NCBI GenBank assembly: GCA_002841785.1
Contig: PHAW01000009.1
Coordinates: 6,946-38,945, forward strand
Origin: Deltaproteobacteria bacterium HGW-Deltaproteobacteria-3
GTDB lineage: Bacteria; Desulfobacterota; Desulfobulbia; Desulfobulbales; Desulfurivibrionaceae
DNA: 32,000 nt
Direction: 5' to 3'
The notes below the pieces were generated by a model, which saw only the letters and a list, made by a program, of their open reading frames with translations, was not told the origin of the DNA and did no database searches. Position numbers and translations under genes: made by a program. Position 1 is the first letter of the stretch. Each line of letters begins with the position of its first letter. This document shows positions 15,868-17,225 of the stretch, one piece after another.

Positions 15868-16179
15868 TCAGCAACAGGAGCCGCCGCCCGGCTTTTCCTC
15901 AATCGCGCAGCAGGCTTCGCTGCCACGGCCAAGCATGGCATGGAATACCGCCTGGGCGCAACCGACCCCGCTTTGCACCCAGATCACTCCGGCGGGGCAA
16001 TTCATCATGCAGGCTCCGCACTCCATGCAGGCGTCCTGTTCGCTGATCCGCGCCTTGCCGTGCGCCATGACAAAAACCTCCTGCGGACAGACCGCCAGAC
16101 ACATGCCGCAGCCCATGCAGCCATCCTGCTCCAGCCGCAGGGTGGCAACTCCCCTGAGATACAGTTGCCTTCTCCTCAT
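15868..16179 (-). CDS. hgcB: Mercury methylation ferredoxin HgcB (2x[4Fe-4S])
   Basis: CMGCGMCLAVCP and CMECGACMMNCP cluster motifs, a GVGCA cysteine, and a C-terminal ...GGGSCC vicinal Cys pair. ATG 16179 overlaps the hgcA stop (ATGA). I trimmed 13 residues from the track's N-terminus. Confidence 0.88.
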   Translation of the reverse strand: MRRRQLYLRGVATLRLEQDGCMGCGMCLAVCPQEVFVMAHGKARISEQDACMECGACMMNCPAGVIWVQSGVGCAQAVFHAMLGRGSEACCAIEEKPGGGSCC

Positions 16180-17225
16180 GGCAGCCTCCTTGCACAGAAC
16201 AACAGAAGCATCCCGCATAGTGTTGCCGCAACCTGCAGCGGCACGGCAATACGCATTTCCTTTCTCACCCCGGAAAGCGAGGTGTAGGTCGAGGCCCCGG
16301 TAAATTCCATGCCGAAAAAGGAGGCAATAGCCGGGATGAGCAGCAACCAGGCCCAGACGGCAAAATCATTGCCCGCGCCCCCTGGGCGGGACAAAAGGAC
16401 GGCAAGAAATGCCAGGCCGGCCATGAGGCCGGCCACCGCCCCCTTCAGGGAAAACGCCCGACCGGGCAACACCGGCAGCAACAGGGGGGTCAACACCGTC
16501 CCGGCAACAATTCCGCTCCCCAAACCTGCCATTGTCCAACCACCATGCTCCCGCACATTCTCCCAGAATGCGGCCGGGCCAAACAGGCCGCTTATCCCGG
16601 ACAACACAACGGCAAGAGGAAGCGCCCATTTGCAGGCGATGACCAATTCCACCGGGACCAACACCGCCCGCTCCGACAGGGAAAAGGTTTTGCGCCGCAT
16701 TGCCGGAGTCGCCTGCATCCCGCGGCCGAGAAACTCCGGGAGATGCCTCGCCTGCACCGGCCCGAACACCACGGAAAAACCGCACTGTCGCTTCACCGCA
16801 TGCGCGGCAATGCCCGGCGCGCCGAGTTGGGGCACAACCAGCCTGCGATGCCCGACCAGTTGAGCAAGCCTGCTCGCCGCCACCTGGACAGATAACGGCG
16901 CCGTGCCAAAGGTTCCCTTGCCCGCCGCGCACCAGACATTAATCCCGCTGGTGTCAAGAACCAGAATCCAGGCGTCATGCCCGGCCAAGGCGGTACGCAG
17001 ATGGTCGAAACTCAATTTGTAATTGGCCGTGACGAGCACGGGTGAATCCTGCCGGGGGGCGCCAACTCCGTACAGGCCCGGCTCAACGGTATAGCGCATC
17101 CGCCCGAACCCCAGACGCACCCGAAATGCACCCCAGCGATCCCGCCAGGAAACTCCGGTGGCGACCTGCGGCACCGTACCCACCGGAGTTTCAATCTTTC
17201 CGGTCACAAAAGCTTGCTCGGCCAT
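16176..17225 (-). CDS. hgcA: Mercury methylation corrinoid protein HgcA (CFeSP-like cobalamin-binding domain plus 5-TM C-terminal domain)
   Basis: Signature GINVWCAAGKGTFG (N(V/I)WCA(A/G)GK, encoded at 16940-16917) and SPVLVTANYKLSFD. There are five hydrophobic C-terminal segments. Start at ATG 17225 after TAGGAG(n5); the track's GTG at 17231 abuts the SD. Confidence 0.92.
   Translation of the reverse strand: MAEQAFVTGKIETPVGTVPQVATGVSWRDRWGAFRVRLGFGRMRYTVEPGLYGVGAPRQDSPVLVTANYKLSFDHLRTALAGHDAWILVLDTSGINVWCAAGKGTFGTAPLSVQVAASRLAQLVGHRRLVVPQLGAPGIAAHAVKRQCGFSVVFGPVQARHLPEFLGRGMQATPAMRRKTFSLSERAVLVPVELVIACKWALPLAVVLSGISGLFGPAAFWENVREHGGWTMAGLGSGIVAGTVLTPLLLPVLPGRAFSLKGAVAGLMAGLAFLAVLLSRPGGAGNDFAVWAWLLLIPAIASFFGMEFTGASTYTSLSGVRKEMRIAVPLQVAATLCGMLLLFCARRLP

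Follow-up and report, generated by a model that had tools for sequence, protein, structure and literature searches.

Does the pair of overlapping genes at the centre of this DNA encode the mercury-methylating proteins HgcA and HgcB, and if so, where does HgcA begin? hgcAB is a two-gene system of anaerobic bacteria that converts inorganic mercury to toxic methylmercury and, to our knowledge, no other genetic marker for the microbial production of methylmercury is known. The DNA, a stretch of 32,000 nucleotides (nt) from Deltaproteobacteria bacterium HGW-Deltaproteobacteria-3 (contig PHAW01000009.1), is here denoted the window, and all coordinates are window positions. A preliminary description, made from the letters alone, had named the pair hgcAB and given HgcA a length of 349 amino acids (aa). 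Our analysis indicates, with a probability of about 0.86, that this is a canonical hgcAB operon from an uncultured bacterium of the Desulfurivibrionaceae (Desulfobulbales), in which HgcA is a selenoprotein of 376 residues carrying a Cys-selenocysteine (Cys-Sec) pair. By family membership and architecture, HgcA and HgcB are a typical, textbook example of the two-gene system. The identity of the genes is already known, as curated hidden Markov models (HMMs) name the family automatically and close relatives are already annotated by NCBI; the selenocysteine extension of HgcA was likewise published before, in 2022/2023.

The two genes belong to the HgcA and HgcB families

Both open reading frames (ORFs) lie on the minus strand, as do all features of the hgcAB unit and its upstream region described below. 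The first ends at 16176 and opens at GTG 17231, and ATG 17225, two codons further in, yields the 349-aa product; the second runs from ATG 16179 to 15868 and encodes 103 aa. The two share an ATGA (16176..16179, read from the sequence) that holds the stop codon of hgcA and the start codon of hgcB, in agreement with the overlapping pair described previously.

We scored both products against the curated equivalog models of NCBI, whose cut-offs are 275 bits for HgcA_corrinoid (NF040863), 285 for the fused HgcAB-like family (NF043039), 306 for the acetyl-CoA decarbonylase/synthase gamma subunit (NF003195) and 99 for HgcB_ferredoxin (NF040864). The 349-aa core of gene 1 reached 423.2 bits against the HgcA model and covered model positions 1-322 of 325. 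It scored 193 bits against the fused HgcAB-like model and 67 bits against NF003195, of which only the last ~125 model positions align. The profile-HMM check thus bears out the HgcA identity: the HgcA model was passed, and the fused and acetyl-CoA corrinoid models failed.

The sole Pfam match of gene 1 is a CdhD-type corrinoid-binding domain (PF03599) at residues 46-163 in the 349-aa numbering (16737..17090). By sequence, this domain matched the large subunits of the corrinoid iron-sulfur protein (CFeSP) in the PDB with E 2e-8. From an alignment of 40 homologues, AlphaFold2 gave a model (pLDDT 89.7, pTM 0.78) with an alpha/beta domain, a short Cys-bearing helix at residues 97-103 and five long helices (residues 189-212, 220-248, 258-279, 287-306 and 317-347). 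The preliminary description had likened the N-terminal part to the CFeSP cobalamin domain, and Foldseek superposed the two at 1.4-1.7 Å over ~124 residues. It had also proposed five hydrophobic C-terminal helices; the AlphaFold2 helices coincide with five Kyte-Doolittle hydrophobic segments, defining a membrane domain of five predicted transmembrane helices (16185..16661). The cap-helix motif GINVWCAAGKGTFG is present with its Cys codon where it had been placed: Cys99 of NVWCAAGK, a form of the family motif N(V/I)WCA(A/G)GK, is encoded by TGC at 16929..16931 and falls in the modelled helix; it is the residue proposed to bind the cobalt as lower axial ligand. All 40 aligned HgcA homologues have the cap-helix residues N96, V97, W98, C99, A101 and K103.

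When the model was compared with the PDB by Foldseek, the top match was a deposited HgcAB model (9a0b_A, 47% identity, E 3e-19), followed by CFeSP large subunits, which matched the N-terminal domain of HgcA alone at 22-27% identity. No experimentally solved HgcA structure was found in the PDB, where the sequence search returned CFeSP alone and the fold search, for HgcA, only the 2020 computed model 9a0b.

Gene 2 (hgcB, 15868..16179) scored 112 bits against the HgcB model, a modest margin over the cut-off of 99, and Pfam found Fer4 domains, in line with the proposed 2x[4Fe-4S] ferredoxin. The two cluster motifs of the CX2CX2CX3CP type, CMGCGMCLAVCP and CMECGACMMNCP, hold Cys21/24/27/31 and Cys51/54/57/61, and the additional Cys in GVGC (Cys74) and the C-terminal SCC (Cys102/103) are also as claimed. 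A further vicinal pair, Cys90/91 in EACCA, had escaped the preliminary description. The combination of an internal and a terminal CC is common among 75 HgcB sequences compared, most of which share the Cys pattern as a whole, and the GVG(C/U) position, at which Haft and Gwadz describe a rare Sec form of HgcB (bioRxiv 10.1101/2022.07.06.499078), is Cys in the window and in all 75.

In some close relatives, whose loci are denoted here by L numbers, the HgcB tail has no terminal Cys pair: L086/L087 (4053-4355 of that locus), L082 (7038-7364) and L083 (4026-4322). The HgcB of L086/L087 also lacks the internal CC and ends in ...NTMLVTIQLKAGNEQKQPKP, a frameshift-like tail.

HgcA most likely starts upstream of an in-frame UGA

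An ORF from ATG 17225 exists as described; the full product is probably longer, with 376 aa and a start 81 bases upstream. In this full-length reading (16176..17306; 376 codons and a stop, based on comparative sequence) translation would begin at ATG 17306-17304 and pass through an in-frame TGA at 17259..17261, the putative selenocysteine codon identified by alignment of related loci. The extended protein then reads from ATG 17306 through QQSC-TGA(17261-17259)-GPKIPPRVGVA-M(17225)AEQ..., and in the clade alignment the ATG previously taken as start (17223..17225) becomes Met28 of the long form.

The region ahead of the previously assigned start is under evident conservation. About 190 nt upstream of hgcA are strongly conserved with two of the closest genomes, L001 and L002, although the upstream genes differ. 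This stretch holds a 15-codon ORF, in frame with hgcA and with a Shine-Dalgarno sequence of its own, the GAGGAG 8 nt upstream of ATG 17306 (17315..17320, read from the sequence); L001, L002 and L082-L086 carry purine-rich GGAGG, GGGGG, GAGGG or GAGGAG at the same site. We considered a separate conserved leader peptide with an anti-Shine-Dalgarno hairpin and dropped it, as the 15-codon ORF is in frame with hgcA and aligns with homologues bearing CC.

The comparison covered 79 evaluable related genome loci. A stop codon occurs at the aligned position (-10 to -13 codons) in 35 of them, and it is TGA in 35/35. The codon directly before it encodes Cys in 29/35, with an in-frame start codon upstream. 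In 24 other loci the frame is open and CC or CxC stands at the TGA position. The eight TAA or TAG stops lie at other, scattered positions and never follow Cys.

Within the window clade, which comprises seven distinct sequences, the extension is kept as ...GG(Q/R)QSC-U-GPKIPPR(A/V)GV.... Its variable sites are distributed 3/3/11 over the first, second and third codon positions (codons 9-27, spanning the TGA), pairwise codon differences in the extension amount to 96 synonymous against 52 non-synonymous, and third-position variation persists through the 11 codons after the TGA. The equivalent of ATG 17225 is ATA or ATT in L001, L002, L082, L083, L084/85 and L086/87, and ATG only in the window and L081; the equivalent of GTG 17231 is GTT in L083. 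Since neither of these codons is conserved, ATG 17306 is the sole conserved initiation site. Taken on this comparative evidence, HgcA most likely starts at ATG 17306 rather than at 17225 and the 349-aa model is truncated. We strongly infer that the UGA at 17261-17259 is read as selenocysteine, giving the Cys-Sec motif SCUGPK.

The same feature has been described for the family at large. Haft and Gwadz concluded that most HgcA proteins are selenoproteins whose CU motif precedes the start assigned by annotation (bioRxiv 10.1101/2022.07.06.499078; PMC13188914 cites the work as J Bacteriol 2023). They reported PCUGP in the HgcA of Pseudodesulfovibrio mercurii (Desulfovibrio desulfuricans) ND132 and of Geobacter, extended lengths of 363-400 aa, and Cys homologues with CC; their finding is also listed in a 2026 selenoproteome review. 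A scan of the window for TGA codons in open frames, as signs of a second selenoprotein gene, gave 93 candidates, GC-rich noise among which only hgcA was convincing.

A SECIS-like hairpin follows the UGA

Beginning 11 nt past the UGA is a hairpin resembling a selenocysteine insertion sequence (SECIS), CCCUCCU-CGGGU-AGGAG(U)GG (17228..17247). It has 7 bp and a G-rich loop, and lies within the minimum-energy fold of a 40-nt segment. At the equivalent site the 35 Sec-type sequences form hairpins of 5-7 bp, with pairing in 80% of cells. The covariation score was 0.325 compared with 0.185 in shuffles, none of 500 of which reached 0.325, and it exceeded that of all slid registers. One pair exchanges UA/CG/UG at 20/10/4 among these sequences, and L088 differs from the window by two compensatory changes. 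Minimum-energy z-scores over 40-60 nt averaged -0.75 for the Sec-type and -0.17 for the Cys-type loci and did not separate the types; Rfam gave no match to the hairpin at either threshold. The covariation, alone informative among these analyses, supports a SECIS-like element, a feature that is compatible with selenocysteine insertion and not conclusive for it.

Proposed function of the locus

Work on purified ND132 HgcAB provides the model for catalysis. According to PMC11588087, S-adenosylmethionine, and not methyl-tetrahydrofolate, forms the Cys-ligated methyl-Co(III), which then methylates thiol-bound Hg(II), and ligation of the cobalt by thiolate was demonstrated. The methyl transfer from Cys-ligated methyl-Co(III) to Hg(II) suggested for the window pair agrees with what that study describes; the folate-branch donor implied by the Wood-Ljungdahl analogy gives way to S-adenosylmethionine.

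By homology to ND132, HgcB would reduce the cobalt of HgcA to Co(I), S-adenosylmethionine would methylate it to Cys-ligated methyl-Co(III), and the methyl group would pass to thiol-bound Hg(II) to yield methylmercury. The cap-helix Cys of NVWCAAGK is predicted to ligate the cobalt from below in a membrane-anchored HgcA, to which the two-cluster ferredoxin HgcB would be translationally coupled. Cys74, Cys90/91 and Cys102/103 of HgcB probably bind or deliver Hg, and the N-terminal Cys-Sec pair (SCUGPK) presumably forms a soft-metal-binding arm, the SECIS-like hairpin 11 nt downstream helping the UGA to be read as selenocysteine. Catalysis, and methylmercury production by the host, are inferred only, from this homology.

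Because it carries hgcAB, this Desulfurivibrionaceae population probably methylates mercury in its environment, which is useful for environmental surveys and adds nothing conceptually. The start site has a more practical bearing: automatic gene calls, like the preliminary description, truncate HgcA at the in-frame UGA, and surveys or expression constructs that use the short model leave out the Cys-Sec motif, which is putatively tied to Hg handling.

Alternative explanations

It is scarcely credible that gene 1 is a paralogue of the acetyl-CoA-pathway CFeSP (AcsC/CdhE) or belongs to the fused HgcAB-like family, which does not methylate. The weak CdhD/CFeSP similarity over residues 45-166 and the sub-threshold 193 bits of the HgcAB-like model point that way, but both models remained below cut-off where the HgcA model was passed at 423 bits, and these scores exclude the reading. 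Moreover, hgcA and hgcB are separate genes, gene 1 encodes a membrane domain as well as the Cys cap helix, the 4Fe-4S and TIM-barrel parts found at the N terminus of CFeSP are missing from it, and there are no acs or cdh genes in the window. A different objection accepts HgcA and disputes its start: the 15-codon ORF (17306-17259) would be a leader peptide, or part of a non-coding leader, with a true UGA stop, and a selenium-free HgcA of 349-351 aa would start at ATG 17225 or GTG 17231. We consider this unlikely, although several observations favour it and weigh against a 376-residue selenoprotein. AGGAG lies 5 nt before ATG 17225 in the window, making a Sec-independent short form conceivable, and public gene calls use the short model (341-354 aa in P0001-P0047, numbered here as related proteins). 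The window hairpin is thermodynamically unexceptional, its stability not exceeding that of shuffled sequence (z = +1.28), and the stem of the window clade is one column off the majority register in the family-wide test. None of selA, selB, selC (tRNA-Sec) and selD occurs within the 32-kb window, the sole host DNA examined, and any Sec machinery of the host would lie outside it. Recombinant ND132 HgcA with an N-terminal His-tag, apparently the annotated short form, was active and methylated Hg in E. coli lysate (PMC11588087); because this construct is active, the Sec arm would not be strictly required in vitro, if it is truly the short form. In addition, given the HgcB tail variants, not every hgcAB of the window clade may be fully functional. 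What speaks for the long form is that ATG 17225 is replaced by ATA or ATT in six of the seven distinct clade relatives and that the clade conserves no start codon downstream of the TGA. The stop is invariably TGA, preceded by Cys in most cases and matched by open-frame CC or CxC homologues at the same position, the third-position bias runs on past it, and the same Cys-Sec pattern is published for validated methylators.

Even with the genes identified as hgcAB and HgcA read as a selenoprotein, Hg methylation could be a side reaction of a genuine HgcAB whose true job is another reaction that depends on a corrinoid, for instance the reductive dehalogenation of halomethanes or some unknown methyl transfer. 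This possibility, which we regard as open to doubt though worth serious attention, concerns physiology and not identity, implies that gene presence over-predicts methylmercury output, and is compatible with all observations made here. A 2026 preprint argues that halomethanes may be native HgcAB substrates, reporting that CCl4 is dechlorinated by heterologous HgcAB and supports growth of model methylators through this reaction; in the window, mer genes and metal regulators are missing nearby, and across the clade the locus is stable among housekeeping genes for thiamine, purine and motility functions. The capacity to methylate is nonetheless not contradicted, as the same preprint and the PNAS study (PMC11588087) both show Hg methylation by HgcAB. 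The Cys-Sec and CC motifs would also suit soft-metal binding, and the window contains no pointer to halomethane metabolism. A bolder proposal, very unlikely in our judgement, combines the two starts: an Ile-to-Met change in this lineage alone would have created an ATG 5 nt past the AGGAG that makes up one strand of the SECIS stem, the N-terminal Cys-Sec arm would capture Hg(II) for methyl-cobalamin, and selenium supply would tune methylmercury output through long versus Sec-less HgcA. If so, the shorter, Sec-less protein would be made when selenium is scarce.

Upstream region of hgcA

A box conserved in 7 clade members, CTTGACGAGTGAT...CTAACA (GGG-CTA(A/G)(C/G)), is located at 17350..17380, that is, 45-75 nt upstream of ATG 17306, irrespective of which gene comes before it. 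Its TTGACG (17373-17378) is a good -35-like hexamer and its -10 element is poor; a sigma-70 consensus promoter scan of 15700-17700 returned nothing. From its conservation, the CTTGACGAGTGAT box may be an activator-dependent promoter or a regulator site. A terminator hairpin after the purH-like gene (17561..17596; a GCCCGACC...GGCCGGGC stem with flanking A and T runs) sets that gene apart from the hgcAB unit. A riboswitch or leader RNA upstream of hgcA was rejected, the only Rfam results being sub-threshold leader/terminator matches on this same hairpin (17535-17617). At gathering thresholds Rfam gave no match in the whole window, and no tRNA was found in it.

Genomic context and related loci

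The neighbours of the pair are as first described: a purH-like AICAR formyltransferase gene (17618-18916, minus strand) upstream and convergent motA/motB (14178-15829, plus strand) downstream. The absence of adjacent mer genes and of an ArsR-type regulator also holds, since neither the flanking ORFs nor the upstream gap of 310 nt contain such a domain; across the window, no merA, merB, merR, merT or merP domain was detected among the scanned ORFs. On one side the window encodes CTP synthase, a multihaem cytochrome, a four-subunit sulfhydrogenase-type NiFe hydrogenase, a PilZ protein and MotA/MotB. On the other it encodes the purH-like protein, ThiH, ThiG, ThiS-ThiF, glyceraldehyde-3-phosphate dehydrogenase (GAPDH), pyruvate:ferredoxin oxidoreductase (PFOR), SulP and PurE.

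Among the closest genomes are metagenome-assembled genomes (MAGs) of uncultured Desulfurivibrionaceae/Deltaproteobacteria, including L001 (JBAZCG010000002.1) and L002 (JAPLJG010000027.1), whose HgcA is 80-81% identical to that of the window. Several relatives at 78-81% identity (e.g. P0027) already bear the NCBI name "mercury methylation corrinoid protein HgcA". In a limited literature collection we found no publication that pairs hgcA with Desulfurivibrionaceae. The order hgcA-hgcB-motB-motA-PilZ-hydrogenase is conserved across the clade loci, and therefore hgcAB is a stable chromosomal feature of the lineage. Upstream of hgcA, ThiG-ThiH-purH-like is found in the window, L081, L086/L087 and L088, and the purH-like gene also in L082; it lies directly upstream of hgcA in the window, L081, L086 and L088. 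L082-L085 carry an inserted TetR-efflux cassette upstream of hgcA. In L001 and L002 a chromate-transporter gene takes this place, and only the hgcB-to-hydrogenase side is shared with the window.

The nearest relative, L081 (ENA ERZ27247837), is 99-100% identical in DNA only at 15340-17590, an island comprising the 3' end of motB, hgcB, hgcA and the leader; the flanking genes are 78-96% identical, and the edge at the purH-like terminator (~17590) is sharp. This pattern suggests either that diverged populations recently exchanged the hgcAB cassette by homologous recombination or that the metagenome assembly is chimeric. Synteny with L081 breaks upstream of ThiS-ThiF, from about 21924 of the window on, where the window continues with GAPDH, PFOR, SulP and PurE and L081 (its positions 1-5300) with the ribosomal cluster rpsM-rpsK-rpsD-rpoA-rplQ.

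MotA of the window (14178-14960) has 260 aa, compared with 288 aa in every relative examined. At the junction 14438/14439, just after residue 87 of 260 and shortly past the end of the MotA_N Pfam match, an in-frame segment of 28 residues (KIKKEGLVAIEADIEDHEKSPLFQKYAN in L081) is missing. The gap is either a real deletion or an assembly artefact.

Elsewhere in the window, long ORFs without a Pfam or NCBIfam match lie at 29668-31569 (633 aa, minus strand) and at 89-706, 1796-2278, 2516-3205 and 3205-3780 (plus strand). Some of these may be spurious frames opposite real genes in GC-rich DNA, for instance opposite KdsC (3097-3741, minus strand). The multihaem cytochrome (498 aa; 6798-8294, plus strand) matched ExtM/ExtN/ExtO, of a selenite/tellurite reduction operon, below threshold (98 bits; cut-off 800), a similarity that probably reflects shared cytochrome c7 repeats only.

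Comparison with known systems

The window pair, known from sequence alone, closely resembles HgcAB of ND132 and Geobacter sulfurreducens PCA (Parks et al. 2013). Common to all are two adjacent genes, a CFeSP-like domain with NVWCAAGK, a membrane domain of five helices, and a 2x[4Fe-4S] ferredoxin with the Cys73 equivalent (GVGC) and a C-terminal CC, as well as a C-U-G-P-(K/R) motif upstream of the first-annotated start. The window HgcA differs in being 47% identical to the ND132 model chain and in reading SCUGP instead of PCUGP. In the window HgcB a second CC lies inside the chain (Cys90/91) and the tail is 10 residues long, a form common in other Thermodesulfobacteriota, and, unlike in ND132, no ArsR-type regulator adjoins the genes.

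The likeness extends further to the HgcA loci of the L001, L002 and P0027 MAGs, which share the GGQQSC-U-GPKIPPR extension, the hairpin and the downstream hgcB, motB, motA, PilZ and four-subunit NiFe hydrogenase genes. What sets the window apart from the L001/L002 type is the upstream neighbour, which varies among relatives, and the ATG at 17225, kept to the window and L081.

With the CFeSP large subunit (AcsC/CdhE) of the Wood-Ljungdahl pathway, HgcA shares the Rossmann-like cobalamin-binding fold. In contrast to that protein, it has neither the N-terminal 4Fe-4S nor the TIM-barrel domain and no small-subunit partner, it carries a Cys in the cap helix in place of a non-ligating residue, and it has a membrane domain in addition. 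The Cys-Sec pair finds its counterpart in the CU/CC selenoproteins of the SAO locus (SaoL, SaoB and SaoC; Haft and Gwadz), in which the dipeptide is proposed to bind heavy-metal or organometallic species. The folds and genomic context of those proteins are unrelated to the window pair, and no SAO genes occur in the window.

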